DNA of 57,675 nt from contig DATMBG010000057.1 in NCBI GenBank assembly GCA_035559535.1, forward strand, positions 1 through 57,675, given 5' to 3'. Under the pieces are notes generated by a model that was given only the letters and a program-made list of their open reading frames with translations, was not told where the DNA came from and searched no databases. Of the stretch, positions 650-49,074 are shown piece by piece. Every line of letters begins with the position of its first letter. Position 1 is the stretch's first letter. The position numbers and the translations under genes were made by a program. This DNA comes from Candidatus Limnocylindrales bacterium (GTDB lineage: Bacteria > Moduliflexota > Moduliflexia > Moduliflexales > JAUQPW01).

Positions 650-1927
650 ATGGGGAGTAAAACCGATGCTAATCTTCAAGTCGCCCTGGCCGGAGAAGCG
701 GATGCAAATCGTCGCTATATTGCTTATGGAATTCAGGCTTTTACGGAAGGTTATCCGGATATTGCCCAACTCTTCTTTGAGGCAGCCGGTGCAGAAACTA
801 TCCACGCACTGAATCATCTCCACGTTTTAGGTGCGGTCCACTCGACTCGAGAGAATTTGATGGCGGCAGCTTATGGAGAAGATCAGGAGATTGAGGAAAT
901 GTACCCGCGCATGATCCGTGAAGCCGAGGAGGAAGGACGACAGGATGCTGCGGAAGCCTTTCGACTTTCTTTAGACCGGGAGCGCCATCATCGAGAGATG
1001 TTTCGCGCAGCCTTGGAGAAGCTAAATAAAACAACGTCGCCCCGATCTATAGAGTCTTCGTCAGATAAAGAAAGTCCAAAACCCAGAATCCACAGTTCGG
1101 AGTCTAAAGGCAGGAGCCCGGAGGTCAGAAGTCAAAGTCCAGAGTCCCGAGGCCAAAGTCGAACGGATACGGGGGTTAAGATTGGGGATTTAGGATCTAA
1201 ATTAAGAGGTATCGAGGAGTTGGAGACAGAGCCGGCCCGGATCGAACGTCTCTCCAACATTCGGGAAGTCATATTTGGGGCACAGGATGCACTGGTATCA
1301 ACTTTCTCTGTAGTTGCGGGTTTGGCAGCTGCAGAAACCTCGAATCATATTGTACTTTTAGCAGGGGCTATATCGGCTATAGCCGGAATTTTATCCATGT
1401 CGGCAGGCACTTTTTTATCGTCTCGGGCCCAGCGCCAGGTTTACGAAGCTGAACTTGCGAAAGAACGTCGAGAAGTTCGGGAAAAGCCCGGGGAAGAGAT
1501 TGCAGAATTGATGGCAGCCCTTGTAGCCCGGGGTATGTCGCGGAATGATGCGGTAGAGGTAACTCGACGCATAGGTCGTCACCCGGATCTTTTACTGGAA
1601 ATCCTTGCTGTCTTCGAATTAGGGCTTGCTCCACAAAGACTTGGGACTCCTGTTCGGGATGCCCTGATCATGGCAGCGGCCTTTGGAGCTGCCTCTCTCA
1701 TTCCTCTCTTTCCTTTCCTATTCCCCAACATCCATATCGATCTGGCCATATCCGGTCTGTTGACGCTTACAGCCCTTTTTGTCATGGGTGTGGCAAAAGC
1801 AGCTCTGGCCGGATTGGCAAGGATACGATCGGGTATCGAAGTTATGCTAGTAGGAGCCGGATCAGGTTTAATAGGCTATGCCCTGGGACGTTTGGCCTCG
1901 CTACTTTTAGGAGTGAATATAGGATAG
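650..1927 (+). CDS. Rubrerythrin (di-iron four-helix) - VIT1/CCC1 iron transporter fusion
   Basis: N-term AGEADANRRY..EGY..IAQLF..AETIH..GEDQE..MYP..ERHH; C-term IREVIFGAQDALVS..SMSAGTFLS VIT1 pattern with TM helices; low-complexity Ser/Glu/Pro linker. Confidence 0.85.
   Translation: MGSKTDANLQVALAGEADANRRYIAYGIQAFTEGYPDIAQLFFEAAGAETIHALNHLHVLGAVHSTRENLMAAAYGEDQEIEEMYPRMIREAEEEGRQDAAEAFRLSLDRERHHREMFRAALEKLNKTTSPRSIESSSDKESPKPRIHSSESKGRSPEVRSQSPESRGQSRTDTGVKIGDLGSKLRGIEELETEPARIERLSNIREVIFGAQDALVSTFSVVAGLAAAETSNHIVLLAGAISAIAGILSMSAGTFLSSRAQRQVYEAELAKERREVREKPGEEIAELMAALVARGMSRNDAVEVTRRIGRHPDLLLEILAVFELGLAPQRLGTPVRDALIMAAAFGAASLIPLFPFLFPNIHIDLAISGLLTLTALFVMGVAKAALAGLARIRSGIEVMLVGAGSGLIGYALGRLASLLLGVNIG
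1072..1162 (+). repeat. 13-unit degenerate heptamer tandem array (consensus RAGTCCA) inside coding linker
   Basis: aagtcca aaaccca gaatcca cagttcg gagtcta aaggcag gagcccg gaggtca gaagtca aagtcca gagtccc gaggcca aagtcga. Confidence 0.75.
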
Positions 1928-1993
1928 TTCGTGGTCTGTTGTCCGCCGTTTGTTGGTTAAAGACTACGGGCTCCAGACTACGGATCAATAATT

Positions 1994-4705
1994 ATGGAAA
2001 CCCGTAAACTGAACTCTTTCGGTACCAAGTCTGTATTGAAAGTGGACGAGCAGTCCTTCGATTTTTTCTCTCTAGAAGCATTGGAACGTGCCGGTGTAGG
2101 TCAGATTTCCAGACTTCCTTTTTCTCTGAAGATTATGCTTGAAAATTTGCTGCGCCATGAGGATGGGCGGGCGGTAACCCGGGATGATATTGAAATTCTT
2201 AGTCGTTCGGCATCTCAGGCCTGGGTTGAAGAGGAAATCGCCTTTCAACCAGCCCGGGTGTTAATGCAGGATTTCACCGGTGTGCCTGCTCTTGTGGATC
2301 TGGCCGTTATGCGAGATGTCATCCAACAGTTTGGTGGGGATCCAAAAAAGATTAATCCCTTGCAACCTGTTGATCTGGTCATCGACCATTCGGTACAGGT
2401 CGATCAATTTGGAACGGCAACCGCTTTCAATTACAATGCCGAGCTCGAGTTTCAGCGTAACAGAGAACGCTATGTCTTTTTAAAGTGGGGACAGAACGCA
2501 TTTAAAAACTTTCGAACCCTTCCCCCTGATATGGGTATTGTCCACCAGGTGAACCTTGAATATCTGGCCCAGGTTGTTTTTAGAGAAGAAAAAGATGGAC
2601 GTATCCTGGTTTACCCTGATACCCTGGTAGGTACAGACTCCCACACCACCATGATTAACGGTATGGGAGTGGTTGGATGGGGAGTTGGTGGGATCGAGGC
2701 GGAGGCAGCCATGTTAGGGCAACCCCTTTCTATGTTAATCCCCCAAGTTGTCGGGTTCAGACTTTCTGGGGAACTACCTCCCGGGGCCACCGCAACGGAC
2801 GTAGTCCTGACGGTTACTCAGATGCTTCGGGCAAAAGGGGTGGTAGGAAAGTTTGTTGAGTTCTATGGCCCCGGAGTGAGTCGGTTAAGCCTCGCAGATC
2901 GGGCTACCATTGCCAATATGGCTCCGGAATACGGAGCCACCATCGGATTCTTCCCGGTGGATGAAGAGACTTTAAACTATCTTCGTCTGACAGGACGGGA
3001 TCCGAACCTTATCAAACTGGTGGAGGCCTATACTAAAGCCCAGGGCCTATTCCGTACCGATCAGACCCCTGACCCGGTCTTCCTGGATACCATCGAGTTA
3101 GATTTAAGTACCGTACAGCCCTGTCTGGCCGGACCCCGGCGACCCCAAGATCGGGTACCACTTACGGAGGCCAAATCCGAATTTCAACGGGCCTTGGCTT
3201 CCATGTTGGGGGGCTCATTCCCAGGGACCAAAAATGGGCGAGTTGTTGTAGAGATGAATAACGAGCGTTTTGAATTAAGCCATGGCTCTGTAGCCATTGC
3301 CGCGATTACCAGTTGTACCAATACTTCCAATCCTTCCGTTATGATTGGAGCAGGTATATTGGCCAAGAAAGCAGTTGAGAAAGGTCTCAAAGTTAAACCC
3401 TGGGTTAAAACAAGCCTGGCCCCGGGGTCCCGGGTGGTAACAGATTACCTGAAAGAAGCAGGATTGATGCCTTACCTGGAAGCGCTACGTTTCCACCTGG
3501 TGGGATACGGCTGTACAACCTGTATTGGTAATAGCGGACCGTTACCTCAACCCATTGCAGAGGCAATACGTGAAGCCAAACTTGTTGTGGCAGCTGTTCT
3601 TAGCGGAAATCGTAATTTTGAAGGACGAATCAATCCCCTGGTACGGGCCAACTATCTCGCCTCCCCCCCTTTGGTCGTCGCCTATGCCATTGCAGGACAT
3701 ATGAATATCGATCTATACCACGAACCCTTGGGGTATAGTCCCAGTGGGGAACCTGTTTATTTGAAGGATATCTGGCCATCCCAAAGGGAAATTCAAGAAG
3801 CCATCCAAACTGCAGTTCAAACCAGAATGTTTCATAAAGTGTATGAGGAGGCTTTCAAAGGAGATGAACGATGGAGGGCTCTTGAGGCTCCTATGGGAGA
3901 CCTCTTCCAGTGGGATCCCCATTCGACCTATGTTAAACGACCTCCTTACTTCGAGGGTATGACCCTGGAAGTTCCGCCCCTCAAAAACATTTATAACGCC
4001 CGGGTATTGGCAGTGTTAGGGGATTCGGTCACAACCGATCATATCTCGCCGGCCGGCTCTATTGGGGTGGATACTCCGGCAGGTAAGTATCTTATAAGCC
4101 TTGGGGTAGATCCTAAAGACTTCAATTCTTACGGAGCCCGTCGGGGTAACCATGAGGTCATGATGCGCGGAACCTTTGCCAACATCCGCCTGCGTAATCT
4201 CATGGTACCGGGAACAGAAGGTGGCTGGACGGTTCATCTACCAGACGGTGAAAAGATGACCATTTACGAGGCGTCCGAAAAATATCGGAACGAGGGAGTA
4301 CCTCTGATTGTTATGGCAGGTAAAGAATATGGATCCGGCTCTTCCCGAGACTGGGCTGCTAAGGGCCCCTATTTGCTGGGGATAAAAGCCATCATCGCCG
4401 AAAGCTTCGAGCGTATCCACCGGAGCAATTTGATCGGTTTTGGAGTTCTTCCCCTCCAGTTTAAAGAGGGTGAAAATCGAGAAACCTTGGGACTTACCGG
4501 ATTCGAAACCTATAGCCTGGAAGGAATCGCCGATGGGCTTAAACCCCATCAAATAATTCCGGTCAGAGTCAAGAAAAAGGATGGAACGGAAAGGATCTTT
4601 GAAACCATCGCCCGTATCGATACGCCCATCGAAGTTCAATATTATCGACATGGAGGAATACTTCACTATGTGCTGAGGCAAATAATCCAACAGAAAAACT
4701 CTTAG
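1994..4705 (+). CDS. acnA: Aconitate hydratase A
   Basis: [50 protein letters not shown] motifs; 903 aa. Confidence 0.97.
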
Positions 4706-8252: not shown

Positions 8253-8548
8253 AAACACGAAGAACCACGAAGATCACGAAGATTCCAGCTATATACAACC
8301 TCTTCCCTGTGAAAAGGTTGCCCAAAGGTCAGGCGACCCCTCTAAAGGGTCAACGGTATTAAGCTCAGGAGGGGAGTCCCTGTCGAAGATATCTTCCTGC
8401 TTCTCAGGGAAGGGAGATCCTGGTGTTCCCCTCTGCGATAGTCTGGGAAGTCAGGATCAGATAACAGGGCTCCTATCCGTTAGGGGGGGACCCTGACCGG
8501 GAGATGATAGAAAATCTCCTTCGTGCTCTTTGGGATCTTTGTGGTTTC
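8253..8548. repeat. Nested inverted-repeat element between sdhA and sdhB
   Basis: Outer arms aaacacgaagaaccacgaagatcacgaag / cttcgtgctctttgggatctttgtggttt; inner arms ggtcaggcgacccctctaa / ttagggggggaccctgacc. Confidence 0.6.
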
Positions 8549-9347: not shown

Positions 9348-10232
9348 ATGAACCAAACTTCTTCCATCTCAGCTTATGATCTTTACCAACGGCAGCGTGT
9401 GACGGTGTTGAACACCCAGATGGCTTATATTGATACCGGCCAGGGGGCCCCCATTGTTTTCCTGCATGGAAATCCGACGTACTCCTATCTGTGGCGGAAT
9501 GTAATCCCCTATGTGGAGGAGCGAGGTCGTTGCCTTGCTCCGGATCTGGTTGGGATGGGAGATTCCGGTAAGGCTCCGGACGGTTCTTATCGTTTTGTCG
9601 ATCATGCCCGTTATCTGGATGCCTGGTTCCAGGCGCTGGACCTTCGGGAGAAGGTTATCCTGGTAGGACATGACTGGGGGGGAGCCCTTGCCTTCTATTG
9701 GGCCTACCGATATCCGGAACGGGTCAGAGCGATAGTTTATATGGAAACAATTGTAAGACCTCTGACCTGGAGCGAATGGCCGGAGGTAGCCCGTAATATC
9801 TTTAAAGGTTTGCGATCCTCCGCCGGTGAAGAAATGATTCTCCAGAAGAATCTCTTCATTGAGCGGATTCTTCCGGCCAGTATCCTTCGACAACTCACAG
9901 AGGAGGAAATGAATGCGTACCGTCGGCCTTACCTGGAGCCCGGGGAGTCTCGGCGGCCTATGCTCACATGGCCTCGAGAAATACCCTTAGATGGAGAGCC
10001 CGAAGAGGTCACGCGGATTGTAAATCACTATGCTACCTGGCTTGCAACCAGTAAAATCCCCAAGCTGTTCATTAATGCAGAACCCGGTTCCATTCTGGTA
10101 GGCGCTCAGCGAGAATTTTGCCGAACCTGGCCGAATCAGCAGGAAATTACCGTCAAAGGAATCCATTTCATCCAGGAAGATTCACCGGCTGAGATTGGAC
10201 AAATCATCGCGGCTTTTATGGCATTGACTTAA
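9348..10232 (+). CDS. Haloalkane dehalogenase (alpha/beta hydrolase, HLD-II like)
   Basis: FLHGNPTYSYLWRN, GHDWGG nucleophile, WPREIP, GIHFIQED. Confidence 0.9.
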   Translation: MNQTSSISAYDLYQRQRVTVLNTQMAYIDTGQGAPIVFLHGNPTYSYLWRNVIPYVEERGRCLAPDLVGMGDSGKAPDGSYRFVDHARYLDAWFQALDLREKVILVGHDWGGALAFYWAYRYPERVRAIVYMETIVRPLTWSEWPEVARNIFKGLRSSAGEEMILQKNLFIERILPASILRQLTEEEMNAYRRPYLEPGESRRPMLTWPREIPLDGEPEEVTRIVNHYATWLATSKIPKLFINAEPGSILVGAQREFCRTWPNQQEITVKGIHFIQEDSPAEIGQIIAAFMALT

Positions 10233-10237
10233 AGTAC

Positions 10238-11125
10238 TTATTGAAGCAAGTACATGAGCTTGAAAGAACGCCCTTCTGCCATTTGAGAGGATAAATGGGT
10301 TATTCCTTCTACTAACTGTTCTAAAATAGAGAGTCGTTTCTTCTTAGGCTCGATCACCTCGGGTTTGCCTTCAATATTTCCCAATTGGGCAGCTTTTTCC
10401 AGGGCATCCTGGAAATTACCCAATTCATCTACCAACCCATACTCTTTCGCCTGGCTTCCTGTAAAAACCCTTCCATCCGCAATGGATCTTAAAGTTTCTT
10501 TGTTGATATTCCTACGACCCTGAACGATGGCATCTAAAAATTGCTCGTAAACTTCATCGATCATTGCCTGTAGAAGTTTTTTTTCATCTTCGGTCATCTC
10601 CCGATCCGGGGAGAAAATATCTTTATATTTACCGCTTTTAACAACCATGGTCTTCACGCCGATTTTCTTGAACAACTCTTCCATATTCATACCTTGAAGG
10701 ATAACTCCAATACTACCCGTCAAAGTCCCCGGATTGGCAATGATCCAATCTGCTGCACTGGCAATGTAATAGCCTCCGGAAGCTGCAAGGGAGCCCATGG
10801 AAACAACGATCTTTTTCTTTTCTCGAAGTTTCAGGATTTCTTTGTAAATTTCCTGGGAAGGTCCTACACCCCCGCCGGGGCTATCGATTCTCAGGAGAAT
10901 GGCAGGAACTGCTTCGTTATCTCGAAGTTGATGGAGATGCTCGATGATTTCTTTGGAATCTAAAATAACCCCTTCAATCTTAACGAGCCCCACTTTTTTA
11001 ACCGAGCTGACAAAACCCGGCTTTTCTTCCTTTAAAACCAGATAAATCCCAACGGCCACAAAGCCCAGAAAAATGAAAACTACCAGACATATTAAAAAAC
11101 TTAGTATGAAGGTTCGCTTTTTCAT
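10238..11125 (-). CDS. sppA: Signal peptide peptidase SppA, 36K type
   Basis: RIDSPGG, AASGGYY, TGSIGV, KSGKYKD, ADGRVFTG. Confidence 0.93.
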   Translation of the reverse strand: MKKRTFILSFLICLVVFIFLGFVAVGIYLVLKEEKPGFVSSVKKVGLVKIEGVILDSKEIIEHLHQLRDNEAVPAILLRIDSPGGGVGPSQEIYKEILKLREKKKIVVSMGSLAASGGYYIASAADWIIANPGTLTGSIGVILQGMNMEELFKKIGVKTMVVKSGKYKDIFSPDREMTEDEKKLLQAMIDEVYEQFLDAIVQGRRNINKETLRSIADGRVFTGSQAKEYGLVDELGNFQDALEKAAQLGNIEGKPEVIEPKKKRLSILEQLVEGITHLSSQMAEGRSFKLMYLLQ

Positions 11126-11240
11126 GGAAGGATTAAAGAAAACAGCAAGGTATACGATATAGTCTCCTTGCTGCTATTCAGGTAACAGCAAAGTTTGCTT
11201 TAATTTTGAAACGCTGGAAGGCTCCGACAAACAAAAAATT

Positions 11241-11275
11241 AAGAAACCCGCCTTCCTGGAGAAAACGGGTTTCTT
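11241..11275 (-). terminator. Hairpin after rpsA (putative terminator/attenuator)
   Basis: aagaaacccg / cgggtttctt 10-bp stem; T-rich tract follows on minus strand. Confidence 0.5.
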
Positions 11276-11293
11276 GGGCTAACCTCTTCAAGT

Positions 11294-13129
11294 CTAAGTT
11301 TCTTGGGCGGGCTTATCTTCAGAAGATTCGGCTTCGGTTTGAGCTTGTGGGACTTCTGCTTCATGGCCGGTCGATTCCGTTTCCTCATCCTGTTCGGTTT
11401 CTCCAACCTCCTCTTTATAGGCCTTAATGCTTAAGCCGATGCGACGATTTGCTTCATCCAGTTTAATCACCTTGGCCATAATTTCCTGTCCTTCAGATAA
11501 AACATCAGAAGGTTTTTTGATGCGTTTTTTACTGATCTCAGAGACATGAAGTAGCCCTTCAACTCCATTTTCAAGTTCTACGAACGCACCAAAATCGGTC
11601 AACCGAACAACCTTTCCTTTTACGTTAGCTCCCACCAAAATTTGGTTACTGATTCCCTGCCAGGGATCGGGTTGAAGTTGTTTAAATCCTAAGGATAATC
11701 GCTCTTTTTCAACATCTATTCCCAGCACCACCGCCTCCACAACATCTCCCTTTTTGACGATTTCAGAAGGATGCTTCACCCGACTCGTCCAGGACATATC
11801 CGATATATGAACAAGACCGTCGATACCCTCTTCCAGTTCGACAAAGGCTCCAAAGTCTGTAAGATTTCGTACTGTACCTCGTACCACACTACCTACCGGG
11901 TATTTCTCGGCTACTACCGTCCAGGGATTCGGTTCCATTTGTTTCAGCCCAAGCGAAATCCTTCGATTGGCCTTATCTAAATCCAAAACCACAGCTTCTA
12001 CCATGTCCCCGACGTTGGCTATTTTAGAGGGGTGTTTCACCTTTTTTGTCCAGGACATTTCTGAGATGTGAACGAGTCCTTCAACACCAGGTTCCAGCTC
12101 TACAAAAGCCCCATAATCGGTTACACTCACGACTTTCCCCCGGACTTTAGAACCAACCGGATACTTTTGATCTGCAGTTTCCCAGGGATCCGGATACTTT
12201 TGTTTGAGGCCTAAAGAGACTTTTTCCTTCTCCCGGTCAAATTTCAGGACCTTTACTTCGATCTCCGATCCTACGGTCAAGATCTCTGAAGGATGATTAA
12301 TACGGCCCCAAGACATATCGGTGATATGAAGCAGACCATCAATACCACCTAGATCTATAAAAGCTCCGTATTCAGTTACATTTTTAACAATACCCTTAAG
12401 GATCTTACCTTCTTCAATTTGCTGAAGCGTTTGCTTACGAAGCGCTCCACGTTCTTCCTCTAAAATTGCTCGACGAGAGAGTACAATATTACCTCGCCGT
12501 CTATTGAGTTTAATAATTTTAGCCTTAATCGTCTGACCTATAAAGGATTCTAAATTTTTAACCGGACGTAAATCGACCTGGGAACCCGGAAGGAAAGAGC
12601 GAACCCCAATATCCACCGTCAGGCCACCCTTGATCTTTTCCACTACTACTCCCTCTACCACTCTATTCTCCTCATGGGCTTTAGCCATTTGATCCCAGAT
12701 TTGAATCCGATCTGCTTTTTCTTTAGAGAGAACCACCAATCCTTCCTCATCTTCAGTACTCTCCAGATAGACGTCTATCTGATCTCCGATTTTGATCTCC
12801 ATGGGGGCTCCAGTGACCGTTTTAAATTCCCTTAAAGGAATCGTCCCTTCAGATTTATATCCAATATCGATAAGAACTTCTGTATCCGTAATTTGAACGA
12901 TGGAGCCACGTACAATACTTCCTTCCTCAATATCTGCAAGGGTTTCCTCGTAGAGACGGGCTAACTCAGGATCTGGCTTCTCAGCTTCATCCTCCAAATC
13001 GAAATCCTCCTCTTGAGGAATATCTGGATTACCCCGGGAAGATGCGTTTACCTCTTTAGAATCCTCCTTTTTTTCATTTTTAATTTCACCGTTAAAATCT
13101 TTATCAGGTGAGGTTACGTCTTGAACCAT
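11294..13129 (-). CDS. rpsA: 30S ribosomal protein S1
   Basis: Six S1 repeats (YGAFIDLGGIDGLLHITDMSW etc.); AGGAGG RBS. Confidence 0.97.
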   Translation of the reverse strand: MVQDVTSPDKDFNGEIKNEKKEDSKEVNASSRGNPDIPQEEDFDLEDEAEKPDPELARLYEETLADIEEGSIVRGSIVQITDTEVLIDIGYKSEGTIPLREFKTVTGAPMEIKIGDQIDVYLESTEDEEGLVVLSKEKADRIQIWDQMAKAHEENRVVEGVVVEKIKGGLTVDIGVRSFLPGSQVDLRPVKNLESFIGQTIKAKIIKLNRRRGNIVLSRRAILEEERGALRKQTLQQIEEGKILKGIVKNVTEYGAFIDLGGIDGLLHITDMSWGRINHPSEILTVGSEIEVKVLKFDREKEKVSLGLKQKYPDPWETADQKYPVGSKVRGKVVSVTDYGAFVELEPGVEGLVHISEMSWTKKVKHPSKIANVGDMVEAVVLDLDKANRRISLGLKQMEPNPWTVVAEKYPVGSVVRGTVRNLTDFGAFVELEEGIDGLVHISDMSWTSRVKHPSEIVKKGDVVEAVVLGIDVEKERLSLGFKQLQPDPWQGISNQILVGANVKGKVVRLTDFGAFVELENGVEGLLHVSEISKKRIKKPSDVLSEGQEIMAKVIKLDEANRRIGLSIKAYKEEVGETEQDEETESTGHEAEVPQAQTEAESSEDKPAQET

Positions 13130-13190
13130 GTAATTGTTTACCTCCTAGTTTTCATAAAATTTTTATGTGTAGCAACTCTATAACCTAAAC

Positions 13191-13820
13191 CTATCTTTTA
13201 TTTTCGTCAAGAACTTCTTGCTTCAGTTCTCTGATTTTCTCCATAATTAGAGTACTTACCTTGATATACAGTTCTTTTGAAGGGCCCTCATGGGTTATCT
13301 GATCTATATAAATGGGTTTTCCAAACTTGATGAGAACCCTATTCAATCTGGGAAATCTTTTTCCCCTGGGAAGAATTTTATCGGTCCCCTGAATCAGGGT
13401 TGGAATTATCACCCCCTTGGATTTAACTGCTATCATACCGACTCCCAATTTCCCTTCCTGTAACTCTCCCGTGGAGCTTCGAGTCCCCTCCGGAAACATT
13501 AGAAGGACTTCCCCTTGAAGAACGATTTCAATCGCTTTTTTTAAAGCGGCTCGATCCATCCCTCCGCGCTTTACAGGAAAGGCCTGCCATCGGGTTATAA
13601 AGAACCGAAGGACCGGATGTCGGAAGAGTTCTTCCTTGGCCATATAGTGGACCCGACGCCAGATCGAACAGCCAATAATGGGTGGATCCAGATAACTGAT
13701 ATGATTCGAAGCGAGGATAACGCCTCCTTTCTTGGGAATATTGGAACGCCCTATGACTTTAAGACGAAAACAAAGGGTGGATACTATAAAGAATAAACCG
13801 TGAAAGAAGGCGTAAAACAT
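13191..13820 (-). CDS. plsC: 1-acyl-sn-glycerol-3-phosphate acyltransferase
   Basis: NHISYLD and FPEGTRS motifs. Confidence 0.9.
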   Translation of the reverse strand: MFYAFFHGLFFIVSTLCFRLKVIGRSNIPKKGGVILASNHISYLDPPIIGCSIWRRVHYMAKEELFRHPVLRFFITRWQAFPVKRGGMDRAALKKAIEIVLQGEVLLMFPEGTRSSTGELQEGKLGVGMIAVKSKGVIIPTLIQGTDKILPRGKRFPRLNRVLIKFGKPIYIDQITHEGPSKELYIKVSTLIMEKIRELKQEVLDENKR

Positions 13821-13868
13821 GGTTCATGACTCGCTGTAGGTAGTCCGTCATCTTATGCCCATCAGGGA

Positions 13869-14549
13869 CTACGGATTACAGCGCCTAGATAATTTTTTCT
13901 CTACCTCCGATAACATTTTTTCCACCACTTCTTCAACAGAAAGTCCTGTTGAATCAATATAAATCGCATCCTTTGCTTTCCTTAAGGGGGCTACTGCCCG
14001 GGTCATATCCTGGGCATCACGCTGGATAATCTCTTCAGTAAGTTTATCCAGATCAACCGAAATCCCCTTACCTTGCAATTCAAGCCATCTTCGTTTGGCC
14101 CGTTCCTCTGGAGAAGCATCCAGATAAAATTTAATATCCGCCTCTGGAAAAATCACCGTGCCGATATCCCGACCATCCAGGACTACATTTCCTTTAGATC
14201 CTAAGTCCCGTTGGAGGGGTATAAGATTCTCTCGTACCTCCGAAATAGCCGATACGGCAGAAGCCAGGTTTCCCACCTCCTGGGAATATAAAACGGAAGT
14301 TACTTCCACCCCATCCACATAGACTTCATAAGATCCATTTTTACCCCGCCGGATATCTAGCCGGGTTCTCTTCATCAAGTCTAAAAGCCTGGGAACATCG
14401 GTGAAAGGAATTCCTTCTTGGGCCGCTTTCCATCCAATGGCACGGTACAGAGCTCCTGTACTAATATGTACGAATCCTAACTTTTCGGCCAGTAACTTTC
14501 CCACGGTACTTTTCCCCGACCCGGCCGGACCATCAATGGCAATAATCAT
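13869..14549 (-). CDS. cmk: Cytidylate kinase
   Basis: IAIDGPAGSGKST, DGRDIGTVIFP; ATG 14549 preferred over TTG 14561. Confidence 0.95.
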   Translation of the reverse strand: MIIAIDGPAGSGKSTVGKLLAEKLGFVHISTGALYRAIGWKAAQEGIPFTDVPRLLDLMKRTRLDIRRGKNGSYEVYVDGVEVTSVLYSQEVGNLASAVSAISEVRENLIPLQRDLGSKGNVVLDGRDIGTVIFPEADIKFYLDASPEERAKRRWLELQGKGISVDLDKLTEEIIQRDAQDMTRAVAPLRKAKDAIYIDSTGLSVEEVVEKMLSEVEKKLSRRCNP

Positions 14550-14602
14550 CTGAAGGCTCAAGGTTTGAGACCGGTTTTGGATCTCCGGTCCTTTACCCTT
14601 TA

Positions 14603-15682
14603 TTAAAGTTTATCGAATCGACTTACTTTATTCCGTAACCAGTGATCCACCAGAACAAGGGCTACCATGGCCTCTGCTACAGGAACCGCCCTTGGACAGA
14701 GACAGGGATCATGCCGACCTTCTACCCGGATCTCCGCCGGATGACCAAAAATATCCACCGTGGGTTGGGTTTTAAGGATTGAAGAGGTCGGTTTGACCAC
14801 CATGCGAACGATAATATCTTCCCCGTTGGAGATACCCCCTAGAATTCCGCCCGCATGATTTCGAGTCGTTCGAATCTTTCCGTCGATCACGGTAAAAGGA
14901 TCGTTATGTTCGGAACCCATCATTTCGGCGGCAGCAAATCCGGTACCGATCTCGACACCTTTTACAGCAGGTATACTCATCAAAGCCTTAGCCAGATCCG
15001 CATCTAATTTATCAAATACCGGTTCTCCAAGACCAGGAGGCACATGTTGGGCAACAACTTCCACGATGCCTCCCAGGGAATCTCCCTGTTTCCGTGCCTG
15101 CACAATGGCCTCTTCCATCTGTTTAGCCACCTCCGGATCCGGACATCGGACTAGGTTCTGCTCAATTTGACTGAAATCGATTTTTTGGGCTTTAAAACGC
15201 CCCACCTGTTTTGTGTAACCGATAATACGGATTTGTTCCTTCTCCCACAAAATCTTTTTCGCGATGGCTCCGGCAGCTACCCGACCTACCGTTTCCCGGG
15301 CACTGGCCCGTGCTCCCCCTCGATAGTCCCGAAGACCATATTTCATCTGATAGGTATAATCGGCATGCCCTGGGCGAAAAAGATGCTTAATGGGTTCATA
15401 TTTGCTGGAATCTACATCTTTGTTATAAACGATCATGGAGATAGGAGCTCCGGTAGTTTTACCCTCAAAGATACCGGATAAAATCTCAACCCGATCCTCT
15501 TCCTTCCGCTGGGAAGTCACCCGACTTTGACCCACACGACGACGATCCAGCTCTTTTTGAATATCTTCTTCTTTCAGGTCAAGTCCTGCAGGACATCCAT
15601 CGACTACAACCCCTATAGCCTTTCCGTGAGACTCTCCCCACGTGGTCAGGACAAAGAGGTTTCCAAAACTACTTCCAGCCAT
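14603..15682 (-). CDS. aroC: Chorismate synthase
   Basis: GESHG, RPGHAD, RASARET, GRHDPC. Confidence 0.97.
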
Positions 15683-16212
15683 TCTAAAATTTTCCTTACG
15701 GCATTTTCGATTCCCATCGTCGAATTATCAATCACCAAATCGGCCAGCCTTTCATACACCGGAATTCTCTCCTCCAACAGCCTCTGAAAGGATTCGTAAG
15801 GCCGATCGGGTTGAAAAAAAGCCGGTATTCCCCGGGCGATAATCCGACGATAGAGAACTTCAGGATTTACTTTAAGGTAAATAACCTTGGAATTTTTCCT
15901 TAAAGGAATCGAAAGAGAATTATAAATGAACGTACCCCCCCCGGTGGATAGAACACAGCAATTTATGTGCTCCAGCCTTTCAAGGGCCTGTTTTTCTAAG
16001 CCTCGAAAGTAGGATTCCCCATGATTTTTGAATATCTCTCGCGAAGATAATTTCTGTCCGTGCTTTTCCCTATAGAGGGATTCCACAACATGGTCTAAAT
16101 CTATAAACCGCCATTTAAGCCGATAGGCCAGCTCTTTACCGATAACTGTTTTACCACAAGATTTAAAACCGATTAAAATGAGATTAATAAAAATCCAGGG
16201 TCCAAAATCCAA
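15646..16212 (-). CDS. aroK: Shikimate kinase (start uncertain)
   Basis: [11 protein letters not shown]-loop, GESYFR, STGGG; only upstream start is a TTG within a heptamer array. Confidence 0.85.
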
Positions 16213-16258
16213 AACCCAAAGTAACCTGTTAAAAACCGGTGAACTCCGGGCTCCGAAT
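16191..16258. repeat. Inverted heptamer tandem array
   Basis: aaatcca gggtcca aaatcca aaaccca ... tgaactc cgggctc cgaat. Confidence 0.6.
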
Positions 16259-17535
16259 TAGGGACTCTCTAATTGCATATTTGCTCCTAGGGCTCTCATG
16301 GAATCAACAAAACCAGGATAGGTTACCTGAATGGCTTCGGCTGTTGTGATTTCCGTTGTTCCTTTAGCTTTCAGGCCGGCAATTGCCAATGCCATGACCA
16401 CCCGGTGATCCCCATACCCCTGAACCAGGCAGCCTTGAAGCGAGCTTTCTTTTAGGACAAGGCCATCCGGTAATTCCTCCACCTGAGCTCCCAACTGGGT
16501 TAAAACCTCCCGCATGGTGGCAATCCGATCCGTCTCTTTAATTCGAGCATGGGCCACGTTACGCAACTTAGTTACCCCTCGGGCGAAACAGCCCACGACG
16601 GCCATGGCAGGTAAAGCATCGGGTGTATCGTTTAGATCCAACTCTACCCCTTGCAATTCCCCGCCCTGGATTCGGATTCCATCTTCTACCACTTGAATTC
16701 GGGCTCCCATTTCTTTCAGATAAGAAATCACCTTTTTGTCGCCTTGCGAGTCCTCCATATCCAAACCTTTCAAAATCACATCTGATTCTGTGATAGCAGC
16801 GGCGCAAAGGGGAAAAGTAGCAGAGGAGAAATCCCCGGGAATGCGCTGCCGAAAAGGTTGATAAGCCTGACCACCTTTTATCTTAAAATACTCCAATCCC
16901 TCCCGTTCATACCGGATTCCCTGTTTATTCAGCCACCACAGGGTCATTTCCACATAAGGCTTTTCTTGAAGGTGGAGAGGTTGTATTTCAGAATTTTTTT
17001 CGGCTAAAGGAGTACTCAATAAAAGACTGCTCAGATACTGAGAGGTTATTCCTTCGACCTGGGTCCGGCCCCCTTTCAGGGGACCCCGCACGACCACAGG
17101 AGCCAGCCCGTTTCCCCGGGTGGAAAAGGCTTCTGCTCCCAGATTTTTTAAAGCGGTTAGCAATGGTCCTACGGAGCGCCTCCGGGTCTGGGAGTCTCCG
17201 GTAAATACAGTGTATTGCAGGCCATGACAGGCCATCCCCATCACTAAACAAAGGGTGGTCCCAGAGTTTTCGACGTCAATAACGTCATCCGGGGTCTGAA
17301 GGTGTCCTCCGGTTCCTTCTACCATCCATTTCTCTTCCTGCACTTCGATATGGCCTCCCAAGGCCTGACAGGCTTTCCGGCAGGCTATGGCATCGGCTGA
17401 AGTTAAAGGATTTAAAATCTCCGACTTTCCCCCGGCTAACGTGGCAATAACAAGGGCTCGAATGGTATGAGATTTAGAAGCCGGAATCTCTATAAGACCC
17501 TGTAATTTGGGTGTTGGTTGAACCTTTAGACGCAT
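16258..17535 (-). CDS. aroA: 3-phosphoshikimate 1-carboxyvinyltransferase (EPSP synthase)
   Basis: PASKSHTIRA, ENSGTT, SQYLSSLL, RIKETDRI, DHRVVMA. Confidence 0.95.
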   Translation of the reverse strand: MRLKVQPTPKLQGLIEIPASKSHTIRALVIATLAGGKSEILNPLTSADAIACRKACQALGGHIEVQEEKWMVEGTGGHLQTPDDVIDVENSGTTLCLVMGMACHGLQYTVFTGDSQTRRRSVGPLLTALKNLGAEAFSTRGNGLAPVVVRGPLKGGRTQVEGITSQYLSSLLLSTPLAEKNSEIQPLHLQEKPYVEMTLWWLNKQGIRYEREGLEYFKIKGGQAYQPFRQRIPGDFSSATFPLCAAAITESDVILKGLDMEDSQGDKKVISYLKEMGARIQVVEDGIRIQGGELQGVELDLNDTPDALPAMAVVGCFARGVTKLRNVAHARIKETDRIATMREVLTQLGAQVEELPDGLVLKESSLQGCLVQGYGDHRVVMALAIAGLKAKGTTEITTAEAIQVTYPGFVDSMRALGANMQLESP

Positions 17536-17554
17536 GTAAAAGAGAACCTGTGCC

Positions 17555-17618
17555 TAAAGTACCCGAACTGTTTAATGTGTCTTTTACTTTAATTCGCTTC
17601 GGGCACCCTAGCGCACTT
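17555..17618. repeat. Inverted nonamer array
   Basis: gtgcctaaa gtacccgaa ... ttcgggcac cctagcgcac tt. Confidence 0.45.
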
Positions 17619-17625
17619 AAGATAC

Positions 17626-18657: not shown

Positions 18658-18664
18658 AAAACTC

Positions 18665-18742
18665 AAAGTACAAGTACCGTGTACTGAGTACCGGATGGGG
18701 AAAAATTCAGTACCCGGTACCCATTACCCAGTACCCAGCACC
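18665..18742. repeat. Inverted heptamer tandem array (GAGTACC family) overlapping hisC 3' end
   Basis: agtaccg tgtactg agtaccg ... ttcagta cccggta cccatta cccagta cccagca. Confidence 0.65.
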
Positions 18743-19830: not shown

Positions 19831-19838
19831 AAAAATAA

Positions 19839-19907
19839 GAAGTCAGGAGTCAGAGGTCAGGAGTCAAAAACTCTCCTTCCAATTCCTGACTTCTGATTCC
19901 TGACTCC
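19839..19907. repeat. Inverted heptamer tandem array (GGAGTCA family)
   Basis: gaagtca ggagtca gaggtca ggagtca ... tgacttc tgattcc tgactcc. Confidence 0.8.
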
Positions 19908-19911
19908 TTTT

Positions 19912-29474: not shown

Positions 29475-29486
29475 GGGGTTAGAATC

Positions 29487-29540: not shown

Positions 29541-29556
29541 GGGCTTCTACTTTTGT

Positions 29557-30654: not shown

Positions 30655-30662
30655 TTCAAAAA

Positions 30663-30731
30663 AAATCCAAAGTCCAGAATCCAGAGTCTAAAGTTCCGAA
30701 GAACCGGAAACTTTGGACTCCGAACTTTAGA
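30663..30731. repeat. Inverted heptamer tandem array
   Basis: aaatcca aagtcca gaatcca gagtcta aagttcc ... actttgg actccga actttag. Confidence 0.75.
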
Positions 30732-30744
30732 ATGATTTTTAGAT

Positions 30745-32785: not shown

Positions 32786-35065
32786 CTACTGGACTTTGAT
32801 ATTCTTGGCCTCCAGGGTAGTCCCCATAGCTCTTTGCAAATTGGCCAAAGATTTATTATAATCTGTTATGGCTCGAACTTCGTTACTTACGGCTGTGGCA
32901 AGATCACTTTGAAATTGAAGCACGTTAAAGTTGGTTGACAGACCTTCGTTGAATTTTTTCTGCTCGGCATCTAATTGTTTTTCGGCAAGCTCCCGAGCTA
33001 TCCGGGTTGACTCGACGCGTTTAATATTCGTACGAATTTGCCGAACTGCCTGACGAACATCGAGGATAATTTGTTGTTCGAGATTCTTAATGGTAACCTC
33101 GGCCTGTTCTGCCGCCAGCTTGGCAACGGCATAGTTACTTTTGGCAGCTCTGTTTCCCAGGGGAAACTCGAAATTAATCCCGGCCTGCCAGGTATAGAAA
33201 TCACCGCTGGTTAATTCATTGAGATTATCCCCGTAGCTGGCCCCCAAACCGTTAAGTCCTAAAGCTCCCTGGAAATTGAGAGCAGGTAATATTTGATTTC
33301 GGTTGGTTAAGACATCAATATTCCGGTTTTTTAAGTTAATTCGAGCCTGCACCAGTTCAGGACGTTTTTGAAGGGCTATTTTAATACTTTCTTCCACAGA
33401 TACATCCCGAATCTCGAAAGGCGGTTTATCCAGCGGCACGATCGAAACATCCCAAAATTTCCTATCCCCTGCCTGGAGATTGAGAATCCTTTTTAAATTA
33501 TCTTCGGTATCTCGTAGGGTTTCTTCAGCAACGAGAACTCCTTCCTCTCTGGCTGCGGCACTGGCTTCAGCCTGCAAGACCTCAATGGGAGCCAGAGTTC
33601 CTACTTCTACCTGAGCCCTATTAATTCTTATAAGATCCTGGGCCAATTTCAAGGCAAGCCGTTTGGCATCCAAATCACCAATGGCAAAAACCAGATCCCA
33701 ATATGCATTCTGAACATCGGTGATAACTTGAATAACCCGACCCTCCAGGACGCTTACGGAAATATCACGGTTGTTTCTGGCAATATAGATAGGGGCCTTA
33801 TTGACGGCCGTTCCAAACCCCCTGAGAAGCGGCTGGGTGACCGTCAACAACCCGTTGGATCCATAAGCAGGATTAATAATAGCCAATGGACTATTCGTTT
33901 GCCGCCAAGAATTATTAAAGGCAAAGGAATATGAGGTACCTGGACTTAGAGTTTGTTGAATCCCGGCATTAAAATTTCGCGTTTCTTCTTCTGAGCCGGT
34001 AGTCTGGCTGGCTGCCGGAGTCAGACTTTTGGAGGCGCTGCCATTAGCTACTACCGTAGGATCGAATTTAGCTTCTGCTACAGTAATTCTTTCGTTGTTA
34101 ATTTTTGGATTGAATCTTTCAATGGCAATATCAAAGTTGTTAACCAAGGCCAGATTAATCGCTTCCTCCAGGGACAGGAAGACTTTGGGAAGTTCTTCTC
34201 CGGGCTTAGCCGATGGAGGGGAAGGTTGTTGGGTCGTAGGGGAAGGAGTAGTTGTTGGAGCTTGAGGGGTTCCAGTTGAAGGGGCTGGTTGGGTAGTTGC
34301 CGGGACCTGAGGTTTCCCGGTTGTTGTAGCCGGAGTCTGCGGCCTTCGAGTCGAAGGGGTCGGCGATGGAGTTATGGGGGCCTGAGGTTTCCCGGCTGCA
34401 GGTGCCGGAGCTTGCGGCTTTCGAGTCGATGGAACCGGTTGGGTGGTTGCAGGGGCTTGAGAACTCCCCGTTGAAGGCGCCGGTTGGGTAACCGCTGGAG
34501 TCTGGGAAGCTCCTGGGGATGGAACTGGTTGGGTAGTTGCGGGGACTTGAGAACTCCCCGTTGAAGGCGCCGGTTGAGTCGTTGCAGGAGCTTGAGGAGA
34601 CTCTGTTGAAGGTGCGGGCTGAGAAGTCGTCGAGGCCTTGGATTTCTTTGTTCGAGAACCGGGCCTGGAGGGTGTTACCTGGGATTTTTTAGGGGACAGC
34701 GGTATTGGGGTCGGTGTTGGAGAAGATTCCGGAGGTGGAATCGGGGGATTAGACCCAGGAACCTGGTCTGTTGAGGGGGTAGGAGAGGGATTTTGAGTCG
34801 AAGGGGTGGATTCTGCCCCTTGAGAAGTATCAGCTGGAGAAGGATTCGCCGGAGTCTCCTGCGTAGCAGCAAGTATTAAGGACTGTGGGATTTCACTTCC
34901 TGGAGGGGGGAAAGAGGCCGGGTTTTGAAGATAATTTACTAAGATGGCTTTAGCCCGAAGTTGATCCCGGACTGTAATGGAAGAATTGCCTCCTTCGGTT
35001 GGAATAAATAAAAAAACAGTGGTCACTCCAATATAAATCAACAATCTATTCACTCTATATTTCAA
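32786..35065 (-). CDS. TolC-family outer membrane factor with long Pro/Thr/Ser-rich N-terminal extension
   Basis: C-terminal ~460 aa LSLEEAINLALVNN..QPLLRGFG..AYWDL..EVGTLAPIEVLQAE..RPEL..GLSTNFNVLQ; TTG start overlaps rlmB stop. Confidence 0.85.
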   Translation of the reverse strand: MKYRVNRLLIYIGVTTVFLFIPTEGGNSSITVRDQLRAKAILVNYLQNPASFPPPGSEIPQSLILAATQETPANPSPADTSQGAESTPSTQNPSPTPSTDQVPGSNPPIPPPESSPTPTPIPLSPKKSQVTPSRPGSRTKKSKASTTSQPAPSTESPQAPATTQPAPSTGSSQVPATTQPVPSPGASQTPAVTQPAPSTGSSQAPATTQPVPSTRKPQAPAPAAGKPQAPITPSPTPSTRRPQTPATTTGKPQVPATTQPAPSTGTPQAPTTTPSPTTQQPSPPSAKPGEELPKVFLSLEEAINLALVNNFDIAIERFNPKINNERITVAEAKFDPTVVANGSASKSLTPAASQTTGSEEETRNFNAGIQQTLSPGTSYSFAFNNSWRQTNSPLAIINPAYGSNGLLTVTQPLLRGFGTAVNKAPIYIARNNRDISVSVLEGRVIQVITDVQNAYWDLVFAIGDLDAKRLALKLAQDLIRINRAQVEVGTLAPIEVLQAEASAAAREEGVLVAEETLRDTEDNLKRILNLQAGDRKFWDVSIVPLDKPPFEIRDVSVEESIKIALQKRPELVQARINLKNRNIDVLTNRNQILPALNFQGALGLNGLGASYGDNLNELTSGDFYTWQAGINFEFPLGNRAAKSNYAVAKLAAEQAEVTIKNLEQQIILDVRQAVRQIRTNIKRVESTRIARELAEKQLDAEQKKFNEGLSTNFNVLQFQSDLATAVSNEVRAITDYNKSLANLQRAMGTTLEAKNIKVQ
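34230..34625 (-). repeat. 45-bp/15-aa coding tandem repeats
   Basis: QAPATTQPAPSTGSS QVPATTQPVPSPGAS QTPAVTQPAPSTGSS QAPATTQPVPSTRKP ... with interspersed 10-aa units. Confidence 0.85.
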
Positions 35066-35916
35066 CGTGTAACCTCCTTTTTTTCCCGTTGCTGCCGAAC
35101 CTCGAACATGAGGAGGGCAGCAGCAACAGAAGCATTAAGGGAAGCAATTTTACCGTATAAGGGAATAGAGATAAGAAAATCACACTTCTTTAACGTTAAG
35201 TTTTTAAGACCTTTAGATTCTCCTCCGATAACCAGGGCTACAGGTCCTTTAAGATCTACACAGTAATAAGCCTTTCCAACTTTAGGTACCGCTCCATAAA
35301 TCCAGAGACCATAATCTTTAAGCCGATCCAGGGCCGAAGCCAGATTAGAAACCCGACAAACCGGAAGATACTCGAGGGCCCCGGCTGAAGTTTTAACAAC
35401 GGTAGGGGTAAGTCCCACGGATCTCCGCTTGGGCAGAATAATCCCATGGACTCCGGCTCCTTCTGCAGAGCGCAAAATAGCCCCTAAGTTATGGGGGTCT
35501 TCAATGCCGTCTAAAAGGACGATAAAGGGAGGTTCGGTTTTTCTTTGAACTTCTTCCCATAATTCTTCCAGGGAATGGTACCGGTAAGGAGATGCGATTC
35601 CTAACACCCCTTGGGTATGAGGGGGAGGAGGGGGGGAGGGGCGGGAGTGTGAGAGGGATTCATCCGTACCTTCATATTCCCATACCCCCATACTCCCAGA
35701 CAGTCTTTCCCTCTCCTGAGCCCGTCGAGCGATCTGCTCAATTCGTTCCCTGGATTCAAATCGAATTTCAATTCCCCGGGACCGGGCCAGGTTTAGAATC
35801 TCCTGGATAGGTTTGCCCTTCCGGCCCGAGGCTATGTAGATCCTTTCAAAAGAGCGATCTGCACGAAGGGCTTCCAGTATGGGATTAACTCCCATGATTA
35901 TATTTTCTTCTCCCAA
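35062..35916 (-). CDS. rlmB: 23S rRNA (guanosine-2'-O)-methyltransferase RlmB, with internal insertion
   Basis: GVNPILEAL, LDGIEDPHNLGAILRSA, IGGESKGL, SLNASVAA; cysS-rlmB synteny. Confidence 0.93.
   Translation of the reverse strand: MGEENIIMGVNPILEALRADRSFERIYIASGRKGKPIQEILNLARSRGIEIRFESRERIEQIARRAQERERLSGSMGVWEYEGTDESLSHSRPSPPPPPHTQGVLGIASPYRYHSLEELWEEVQRKTEPPFIVLLDGIEDPHNLGAILRSAEGAGVHGIILPKRRSVGLTPTVVKTSAGALEYLPVCRVSNLASALDRLKDYGLWIYGAVPKVGKAYYCVDLKGPVALVIGGESKGLKNLTLKKCDFLISIPLYGKIASLNASVAAALLMFEVRQQREKKEVTR
35613..35698. repeat. Inverted octamer array in frame within rlmB
   Basis: Coding strand gggagtatgggggtatgggaatatgaaggtacgga ... cctctcacactcccgcccctccccccctcctccccctcataccc; same family as 24313-24432. 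Confidence 0.7.
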
Positions 35917-37431: not shown

Positions 37432-37581
37432 TTTATCTGTTGTCCGCGATCTGTTATGAATTTGAAGGGGTGATCTCTATAAAGGGCATCTTAAGCCCTT
37501 CGACAAACTCAAAACAGGTTGATGGATCAACTTCCCTATCTTCAAATTAACAAGTAACAGATAACGGACAATAGACAACTA
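37432..37581. repeat. Nested palindromic element with heptamer outer arms
   Basis: tctgttg tccgcga tctgtta / taacaag taacaga taacgga caataga; middle aatttgaag / cttcaaatt; central cccttcgacaaactca. Confidence 0.6.
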
Positions 37582-38129: not shown

Positions 38130-38283
38130 AATTTCTTTATCCTTTACCTGTAGTCCATTGTTTTTTGCGATTTTGTGTAGCCATTTTCTAACAAATTCCA
38201 CAGGGATTTTCACTTTCTATCCGTACCCTGAGACTCCGTTACTATCAAAATACAGCCAACAAAGGACAACAGACAAAGGATAA

Positions 38284-38790: not shown

Positions 38791-38901
38791 ATTAACAGAT
38801 GGTGAGGGCGTGAGGAAGAAAGCCTGCCATGCCCCCTGCTCTTGCCCTCTCCTCCTCCTACTCCCTTACGCCTTTACGGTAAATTACAGACAACCGATTG
38901 C

Positions 38902-49005: not shown

Positions 49006-49009
49006 CTTT

Positions 49010-49074
49010 GTCTTGAACTCGAAGTCCGGTATCTAAAGAAAACCCCGGATACCAGACTGAGAGACCCAGGACTA
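49010..49074. repeat. Inverted heptamer-like hairpin
   Basis: agtccggtatct / ggataccagact with flanking gtcttga / ccaggac. Confidence 0.5.

Follow-up and report, generated by a model that had tools for sequence, protein, structure and literature searches.

Tandem-repeat hairpins between co-directional genes of a KSB3-like bacterium and the probable level of their action

In a 57.7-kb stretch of bacterial DNA (about 46% G+C, with 7.7 kb of intergenic DNA), which we refer to as “the window” and always mean at its full length, many of the gaps between co-directional genes hold hairpins whose arms are short tandem repeats. An earlier note on this DNA had listed 16 sites where a degenerate tandem array is followed by its reverse complement, and had likened them to mobile elements of the REP/REPIN type (repetitive extragenic palindromic sequences and the hairpins that they form). 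Our analysis has shown that the observation itself is largely real, far beyond chance, and that the hairpins are fixed, constrained stem-loops of the sense strand and not a recently mobile or spreading population. We consider it probable that they are hairpins of the type known from the STRR sequences (short, tandemly repeated and repetitive) and from Xanthomonas, i.e. selected stem-loops of sense polycistronic mRNA that act in cis.

Repeat hairpins in co-directional gaps

Arrays of period 7 (at least 75% self-match over three units, with low-complexity runs removed) are enriched about 20-fold in the intergenic DNA of the window: eight arrays (214 nt) were observed, against a mean of 0.4 (7.8 nt) in 100 dinucleotide shuffles, none of which reached the observed count. 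The comparison with shuffles that the earlier note had proposed is thus decided in favour of the period-7 arrays. Coding DNA holds two such arrays against 1.6 expected, i.e. it is not enriched, and two arrays of period 8 were observed against 0.5 expected. Tandem Repeats Finder (TRF), proposed in the same place, recovers only part of the period-7 arrays at score 30 and misses the rest.

Folding of the transcribed strand has revealed a similar excess: 10 of the 17 co-directional gaps of 40-120 nt fold at z ≤ -3 (60 shuffles). As a natural control, 79 unrelated loci, with 169 co-directional gaps of the same length, were run through the same pipeline; in a rerun with 25 shuffles, z ≤ -3 was reached by 8/17 gaps of the window and by 12/169 control gaps (Fisher p = 5.7e-5), and the combination of z ≤ -3 with a period-7 score of at least 10/14 by 5/17 and 2/169 gaps, respectively (p = 6.6e-5). 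Three other measures were set aside. The plain period-7 count (1.73 per 10 kb in the window, 0.73 per 10 kb in the 79 other loci together), taken per locus, fails to set the window apart from AT-rich loci; a local-fold listing of single hairpins (at least 14 pairs, E ≤ -15) returned 676 matches and was too permissive to be used; and an ungapped detector of an array plus its Watson-Crick complement found just two sites in the window, as degenerate stems rich in G:U pairs escape it.

The 16 listed sites, which are called here by the start coordinates under which they were listed, differ in how far they match the described architecture. Seven are hairpins with significantly periodic arms (period 7 at 1925, 16191, 18665, 19839, 28740 and 30663; period 8 at 24313), and in two more, complementary repeat arms enclose a long structured core (nonamers at 8253-8548, heptamers at 37432-37581); for these, the array followed by its reverse complement stands. 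Four sites are clear hairpins whose arm periodicity is not significant or not seen (29487, 49010, 17555 and 27245), two have periodic arms and a weak hairpin (13830 and 35613), and site 38800-38880 shows neither a hairpin (z -0.6) nor period 7.

Hairpins are present in 13 of the 27 co-directional gaps and in none of the 10 convergent or divergent gaps (Fisher p = 0.007), which bears out their association with gene boundaries; the strictly periodic set gives 8/27 against 0/10 (p = 0.08). In each of the 11 gaps examined, the stem domain begins at most 30 nt before or 9 nt after the first base past the upstream stop codon, and its end falls at most 14 nt before or 29 nt after the base that immediately precedes the annotated downstream start; therefore, both codons lie at the foot of a single stem.

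The constraint on these stems has been assessed by comparison with a close relative (locus L001, JAUQPW010000037.1), with an AroA protein that is 97% identical and DNA that is about 90-95% (~94%) identical over positions 9858-27590 of the window. All seven sites that the relative covers are occupied at the same place, i.e. no empty allele was found, and a spread of the REP/REPIN kind is not borne out. The fold energy is kept at six of the seven, while at 24313 the relative has -25.4 instead of -70.6 kcal/mol. Five heptamer hairpins differ from the relative at 23 of 357 positions (6.4%), against 373 of 2284 (16.3%) at the four-fold degenerate sites of 13 genes, among which the aroK row was read off frame (Fisher p = 1.7e-7). 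In the sense fold, 14 of the 18 substitutions at paired positions keep a standard pair, against an expectation of 45% that is derived from the observed share of transitions (p = 0.005), and all of those that keep it are transitions through G:U; in the antisense fold, 3 of 10 substitutions keep the pair (p = 0.87). The sense RNA is also more stable than the antisense RNA at 10 of the 16 sites, by a margin of 12-16 kcal/mol at 1925, 16191, 18665 and 30663.

The full occupancy, the slow divergence and the sense-only pairing together are the reason for which we regard the hairpins as fixed and selected, not recently mobile; moreover, an evolution that is slower than that of synonymous sites, with pairs kept through G:U on the sense strand only, points to mRNA as the level of action, and the action on operon mRNA that the earlier note had proposed fits these data. 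Three of the seven shared sites (18665, 24313 and 27245) differ in length from the relative, and all 10 indels of at least 5 nt in the 17.7 kb compared are intergenic and confined to repeat hairpins and other intergenic repeats. One of these changes lies at 24335, where the apical 82 nt of the octamer hairpin are missing in the relative, in which a 12-bp hairpin built from the same unit is left. In more distant sequences, the sites lack the element or look different: in a distant syntenic locus (L039), with 8 genes in common at 42-61% identity, the 81-nt hairpin gap of the window corresponds to a 4-nt overlap between pheA and hisC, and a further example, the linker of RlmB, is described below.

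Elements, units and other repeats of the window

The elements that are located between genes are listed below, with the strand of the flanking genes, the number of pairs in the stem, the fold energies (E, in kcal/mol) and the z values against shuffles.

1925-1990, plus strand: hairpin with heptamer arms, flanked by the rubrerythrin-VIT1 gene and acnA; 21 pairs, including 5 G:U pairs; sense E -28.3 (z -3.8), antisense -16.1 (z -1.4); best period 7 in both arms (10/18; p = 0.035 and 0.0035).
8253-8548, plus strand: composite nonamer element between sdhA and sdhB; the end arrays (TRF period 9 at 8256-8283; right-hand array at 8519-8545) pair around a structured core of ~240 nt; E -122.2, z -3.87 (-3.9), outer arms paired.
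13830-13885, minus strand: short heptamer-arm hairpin with a weak fold between cmk and plsC; 17 pairs; arm period 7 (p = 0.0045 and 0.045); z just -1.6; present in the close relative.
16186-16258, minus strand (site 16191): heptamer-arm hairpin between aroA and aroK, folding on the sense strand only; 26 pairs, including 6 G:U pairs; sense E -28.9 (z -4.5), antisense -14.1; 1 substitution in 73 nt against the close relative.
17548-17622, minus strand (site 17555): hairpin without detected tandem periodicity between the DAHP synthase gene and aroA; 25 pairs; sense z -3.1 to -5.1; 3/4 paired substitutions in the close relative keep pairing.
18660-18745, minus strand (site 18665): hairpin with heptamer arms, flanked by hisC and the DAHP synthase gene; ~33 pairs; TRF period 7, 5 copies; sense E -38.4, antisense -22.0; 8/8 paired substitutions in the close relative keep pairing, with a 6-nt indel in one arm (18673).
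19835-19910, minus strand (site 19839): heptamer-arm hairpin between pheA and hisC; 31 pairs; z -9.2; period 7 at 17/27 and 18/27 in the arms (p = 0.0005); TRF arrays at 19841 and 19884.
24313-24432, minus strand: G-rich hairpin with octamer/16-mer arms between the gene of a 928-aa open reading frame (ORF) and lysA; 48 pairs; period 8 in both arms (p = 0.0005), TRF period 8/16; antisense fold better (E -86.8, sense -70.6).
27245-27327, minus strand: hairpin with weak octamer periodicity (just 2 octamer units) between argH and the 928-aa ORF; a 25-nt mini-element in its apex; sense E -30.0 (z -3.8), antisense -18.9.
28740-28800, minus strand: heptamer-arm hairpin between tenA and argH; 21 pairs; period 7 at 13/17 and 12/17 (p = 0.0005); z -5.4.
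29487-29545, minus strand: hairpin without significant periodicity (period 7, p = 0.11 and 0.14) between an alcohol-dehydrogenase-like gene and tenA; 22 pairs; z -5.8.
30661-30735, minus strand (site 30663): hairpin with heptamer arms, flanked by a 589-aa ORF and the alcohol-dehydrogenase-like gene; 28 pairs, including 6 G:U pairs; sense E -35.2 (z -7.2), antisense -21.9; period 7 (p = 0.013 and 0.0005).
37432-37581, minus strand: composite heptamer element downstream of a cupin gene and upstream of cysS, with arms around a structured core of ~90 nt; E -54.1, z -5.96 (-6.0), outer arms paired.
49010-49074, plus strand: hairpin without significant periodicity (period 7, p = 0.40 and 0.60) between the genes of the large and medium subunits of a molybdenum hydroxylase; 20 pairs; z -4.7 to -5.4; GTC/GAC polarity present.

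The nonamer description therefore holds at 8253-8548 and not at 17555-17618, where neither TRF nor the period scan found a nonamer; as for the octamers, period 8 is clear at 24313, 27245 has its two units only, and 35613 is periodic, weakly folded and located inside a gene (see below). A direct array of three units with a 14-nt period, without an inverted partner, was also seen at 38242-38283, in the gap that separates the cupin gene from cheW; its sequence complements the type of arm found at 1934-1955.

The genes of the window, as annotated with NCBIfam and Pfam, are an ordinary housekeeping set. They comprise a rubrerythrin-VIT1 fusion, acnA, sdhCAB and a dehalogenase-like hydrolase; a long minus-strand string with pheA, hisC, DAHP synthase, aroA, aroK, aroC, cmk, plsC, rpsA and sppA; and lysA, argH, tenA, rlmB, cysS, che genes, gltX, the molybdenum hydroxylase and an emrAB-like pump. 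The same annotation found no transposase-like or RAYT-like gene (REP-associated tyrosine transposase) in the window, in agreement with the earlier note, which had seen no mobilising enzyme; there are also no Rfam matches at gathering score over the whole window, and a scan for tRNA and tmRNA found no genes. The best named relatives of RpsA (ribosomal protein S1) are those of Candidatus Vecturithrix, Candidatus Moduliflexus and candidate division KSB3, at 69-76% identity, and no cyanobacterial title occurs among the best 80 AroA loci; for these reasons, the host is an uncultured, KSB3 (Moduliflexota)-like bacterium and not a cyanobacterium.

According to the earlier note, the unit sequence differs between the sites and shape is conserved rather than sequence. 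There are indeed several unit families, yet some of them link two or three loci: family D4 links 1070-1159, 16196 and 30668 (in 30661-30735), family D2 links the right arm of 35613-35698 (at 35655) with 24377-24435, and family D16 links 1928 and 37429, the left arm of 37432-37581 being 78% identical to the left arm at 1928-1954. A polarity is also common to the units: GTC is confined to left arms, with 15 occurrences, and GAC to right arms, with 13, and all seven scorable sites agree (p = 0.016; e.g. 19836-19910, 1925-1990 and 49010-49074). The units are thus not arbitrary, and the precedence given to shape was overstated. The 78 phased units yield a loose consensus of two purines followed by AGTCC, which the phasing itself biases; the similarity of the consensus units of the sites is weak (4.09 matches against 3.90 in shuffles, with 80/2000 shuffles reaching the observed value). 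Near-identical repeats in high copy are absent, since k-mer enrichment has shown no dominant repeat word and the top 6-mers, none of which is a hairpin unit, are at most about 3-5 fold over coding DNA. The heptamer units carry at most GG, and runs of GGGG are found only in the octamer elements 24313 and 35613.

Two arrays are located inside ORFs, where they are translated as linkers between protein domains; for these two, the statement that the listed sites fill intergenic gaps needs to be corrected.

1069-1161, plus strand: direct heptamer array of 13 units, without a proper inverted partner, inside the ORF 650-1927 (period scan and translation).
35613-35698, minus strand: inverted octamer arrays, rich in G, that are read in frame as residues about 74-101 of RlmB, in its interdomain linker.

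The first array is read in frame, in a disordered linker rich in Ser, Pro, Arg and Glu, between the Rubrerythrin and VIT1 domains of the fusion protein (Pfam, residues 8-121 and 204-414). Among the aligned homologues, both its length and its sequence are hypervariable throughout, and it therefore offers no test for an empty site. The second lies in a continuous rlmB ORF, between Pfam domains at residues 6-67 and 131-271, and it folds weakly (sense z -1.8). Only relatives of 66-95% identity have this linker, which varies in length and in one of them has a His/Pro/Thr repeat; a KSB3-named RlmB and typical RlmB proteins (245-260 aa) lack it. Tandem repeats of another kind occur at 34256-34663, in the N-terminal half of a 759-aa TolC-like ORF (75 and 45 nt, in 7 and 3 copies that are 60-79% alike), and are therefore a repetitive protein region.

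A mini-element of 24-25 nt with an internal 7-bp palindrome was found in three copies in the window, with none expected (100 shuffles).

22964-22990, plus strand: mini-element copy in a convergent gap; absent at this place in the close relative.
27279-27308, minus strand: mini-element copy within the apex of hairpin 27245; missing from the corresponding place in the close relative.
56999-57022, minus strand: third mini-element copy.

Both copies in the stretch that aligns with the relative correspond to exact 25-nt gaps there (2/2), which makes the mini-element the only truly polymorphic micro-element seen between the two genomes. The third copy adjoins a near-perfect, GC-rich hairpin of 26 bp (56896-56985, about -70 kcal/mol), located where a small ORF begins that weakly matches the WYL domain.

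Two further gaps differ from those of the relative. The divergent gap 21013-21492 contains a hairpin-forming repeat of another type, GAGGAGCYGGGGGTGAGGG, in two copies (21264 and 21427), together with a 41-nt segment that is duplicated (21158 and 21451); the relative has one copy only, with 37 + 27 + 164 nt missing. At 22873-22904, in the convergent gap after the gene of a solute-binding protein, the relative has ~315 extra nt (89 + 145 + 81), which the window lacks.

Weighing the explanations

Under the explanation that we prefer, each element consists of degenerate units of 7 nt, in some cases 8 nt, in tandem, with the complementary run behind them. Being located between co-directional genes, the elements would be transcribed within polycistronic mRNA, where each would form a G:U-rich stem-loop of 17-48 bp, with the upstream stop codon and the downstream start region at its base. 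Long double-stranded stems are classical substrates for RNase III and classical blocks to 3'-exonuclease, and the most likely roles of the stem-loop would be that of a barrier or RNA processing site that sets the stability of the cistrons on either side, and that of a structure tying downstream initiation to upstream translation. The tandem periodicity would come from replication slippage, and the arms might be kept matched by selection or by template switching within the hairpin, which would allow the stems to lengthen or shorten in unit steps, or by loss and gain of the apex.

Several observations weigh against this explanation. Units of the hairpin type also form arrays in two ORFs, as translated linkers, and therefore a role as an RNA hairpin is not needed for their persistence. 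The placement from stop to start depends on gene starts that were taken as the starts of the longest ORFs, and operon membership is read from gene order alone; a survey of Shine-Dalgarno sequences found a clear motif in about 8/45 genes, with or without a preceding hairpin, and is therefore uninformative. The covariation is read from 18 substitutions in one close relative. Four sites (24313, 28740, 35613 and 49010), of which 24313 and 35613 are the G-rich octamers, fold better on the antisense strand, and G:U against A.C stands at 48:34 in the full set of 13 aligned hairpins (p = 0.15, not significant); in favour of the explanation, arm alignments of the eight heptamer-type hairpins give 33:11, for a subset that was picked after seeing the data. 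Finally, the GTC/GAC polarity is identical when it is read from either strand, and a pure RNA-shape model therefore fails to explain it; none of the explanations offered here accounts for this polarity.

Among the alternatives, a neutral origin deserves the most attention, although we consider it unlikely: slippage would make the heptamer arrays, template switching would perfect the quasi-palindromes, and these would persist wherever they are harmless, without a function. The degeneracy of the units, their presence in partnerless direct arrays and translated linkers, and the differences between close genomes, i.e. an arm length shift of about one unit (6 nt, 18673) and the gain or loss of an apex (82 nt, 24335), are all as expected from such processes, and slippage as the origin of an excess of heptamers is a hypothesis quoted in PMC4692102. 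Neutral by-products would be expected neither to diverge more slowly than four-fold degenerate sites nor to keep sense-strand pairing above expectation; they also sit poorly with the absence of hairpins from all 10 convergent or divergent gaps and with the retention of the hairpin at 7/7 orthologous sites, six of them with their fold energy and 24313 as a short stem only. An action at the level of DNA appears less probable again: the elements would be cruciforms or hairpins of single-stranded DNA that a protein recognises, either a RAYT-type enzyme with REP/REPIN-like targets or factors of the nucleoid or of replication, with a quadruplex as a further form for the G-rich octamers. The strand-symmetric polarity (7/7) is what would be expected of a signal in duplex DNA or of terminal inverted repeats, the octamer elements 24313 and 35613 fold better antisense, the 25-nt mini-element is polymorphic, and G-rich heptamer repeats of Xanthomonas have been shown to form a quadruplex (PMC4692102). 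These points are met by pairing that is kept through G:U on the sense strand only, by hairpin occupancy without presence/absence polymorphism, by the lack of an identical core in high copy and of a transposase or RAYT-like gene in the window, and by heptamer units that hold no runs of three or more G.

It is very improbable, in our judgement, that the hairpins are intrinsic terminators or attenuators that partly stop transcription between the genes of a string. Termination has been raised as a possibility for one STRR hairpin (PMC2670836), and U-rich runs do follow 19839 and 30663 on the sense strand, and less clearly 16191 and 18665; but the U tract is missing at most sites (e.g. 1925, 13830, 29487 and 49010), and the hairpins separate genes of single biosynthetic strings, such as the aro genes. 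A terminator scan of positions 11000-30900 returned 32 sites against 24.6 +/- 4.8 expected, i.e. no enrichment; it flags a GC-rich hairpin after rpsA (11241-11275) and, as a whole, none of the eight repeat hairpins located there, the sole call in a heptamer hairpin being a 6-pair stem (16217-16198) inside the 3' arm of 16186-16258. Ordinary GC-rich terminators are found elsewhere in the window (11241-11275 and the 49943 gap).

A wider proposal, which extends the preferred explanation and which as a whole we put forward as a doubtful speculation, slightly less credible than a neutral origin and slightly more so than an action on DNA, is that of a cross-phylum “operon punctuation”: polar heptad-repeat stem-loops of the sense RNA, read or made by an as yet unknown heptad-specific factor, would set processing, stability and translational coupling between cistrons, with a length tunable in unit steps, and, in the KSB3-like lineage, a mobile 25-nt mini-element would land in the hairpins. 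The units of this proposal ([..GTC..]n - loop - [..GAC..]n) are close to the GGAATC/GGAGTC type of Xanthomonas and of loci from Bacillota.

Comparison with known systems

The mini-element, and it alone among the repeats of the window, resembles the small dispersed repeats (SDR) of Nostoc, which are reportedly 21-27 nt long, dispersed and insertion-polymorphic. The likeness lies in the very small size, the dispersal (3 copies in 57.7 kb), the presence or absence between close genomes and the location of one copy inside a repeat hairpin; the difference is that the host of the mini-element is not cyanobacterial.

With REP/REPIN elements, which are mobilised by RAYT (HUH) transposases (PMC3116915, PMC3733652), the hairpins share the form of short extragenic palindromes that are able to stabilise upstream mRNA, and GTAG units occur in the arms of 1925 and 13830. 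In contrast to these elements, the hairpins have tandem-repeat arms, no high-copy core, no polymorphism in occupancy and no RAYT gene in the window; membership has been rejected on account of the absence of a near-identical palindromic core and the occupancy of 7/7 sites in the close relative.

The TAACTGA heptamers, known as direct arrays from Beggiatoaceae, cyanobacteria and Bacteroidetes (MacGregor 2015, PMC4679880), are also intergenic arrays of large or filamentous bacteria, next to start codons, with a few inside ORFs and with a proposed post-transcriptional role. Their unit is exact and 169 direct sets stand against 1 inverted set, whereas the arrays of the window are mostly inverted, hairpin-forming and degenerate.

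Hairpins of 7-bp STRR are described in PMC2670836 as “not unusual in filamentous cyanobacteria”, e.g. between hupS and hupL, with transcript stability, translational coupling or termination as suggested roles. The window shares with them tandem 7-bp hairpin repeats that are dispersed, intergenic and located between genes of one transcription unit; it differs in its host, which is not a filamentous or heterocystous cyanobacterium, and in its octamer, nonamer and nested composite forms. Three repeats of Nostoc PCC 7120 (PMC2408588), searched with at most 3 mismatches, gave 3, 1 and 0 matches in the window against 1.55, 0.74 and 0 expected. Three of these four matches lie in hairpin arms, one of them (2/15 mismatches) in the 19839 arm; overall, the matches are no more frequent than in shuffles.

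The closest precedent is that of Xanthomonas, where GGGAATC heptamers are followed by the same repeat on the other strand, in 70-75 inverted pairs per genome (Rehm et al. 2015, PMC4692102). According to this article, the pairs are mostly intergenic, mostly between ORFs of the same direction and transcribed; 83% are kept in place between two species, with differing lengths, and whether the structure forms in DNA or in RNA is left open. The same source gives GGGGA(T/C)T heptamer repeats for Nostoc PCC 7120. The window likewise has inverted heptamer pairs, enriched in intergenic DNA, located in co-directional gaps and kept in place with variation in length, and some of its units (GGAATCA, AGAATCC) resemble GGGAATC. 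It differs in phylum and in the units: one near-uniform, G-rich unit per genome was chosen there for its quadruplex potential, whereas several degenerate families occur here, most of them without G runs, and the heptamer units of the window, with at most GG, are not of the G-rich, quadruplex-capable kind that has at least three G per unit. To this precedent, our comparison with one relative adds the constraint on sense-strand RNA pairing.

The earlier note had named heterocystous cyanobacteria as the precedent for tandem heptamers, which is too narrow: besides the inverted arrays in print for Xanthomonas (PMC4692102), heptamer-arm hairpins were seen in our control loci from Bacteroidota and Bacillota. 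They are located at 2359-2422 and 12652-12735 in a locus of Marinifilum (Bacteroidota; L049), at 1366-1457 and 11270-11387 (unit AAGTCAA) in two loci of metagenome-assembled genomes (MAGs) of Bacillota (L027 and L051, respectively), and at 4364-4500 in a locus of an unclassified MAG (L050); some of the units, such as AAGTCAA and AGGAGTC, closely resemble units of the window. The paper on KSB3 genomes, PMC4312070, makes no mention of heptamers or of tandem, hairpin or intergenic repeats, nor does PMC6390638 of heptamers or of tandem or intergenic repeats; as far as these two papers and a literature search show, the repeat hairpins are unreported in this phylum, a claim that we make modestly.

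Among the longer simple repeats, heptamers are the one class known to be over-represented in many bacterial genomes, and their function, including the choice between a structure in DNA and one in RNA, has been open for decades (PMC4692102, PMC2670836). The window and one close relative provide a comparative signal that is small but direct, and the phenomenon is extended to a candidate phylum of filamentous bacteria (KSB3); if the signal holds genome-wide, it would offer a testable model of a stop-to-start stem-loop that controls stability, processing or coupling in operons. The architecture itself is already in print from the systems compared above, and what we add to it, modestly, is comparative evidence for the RNA level.

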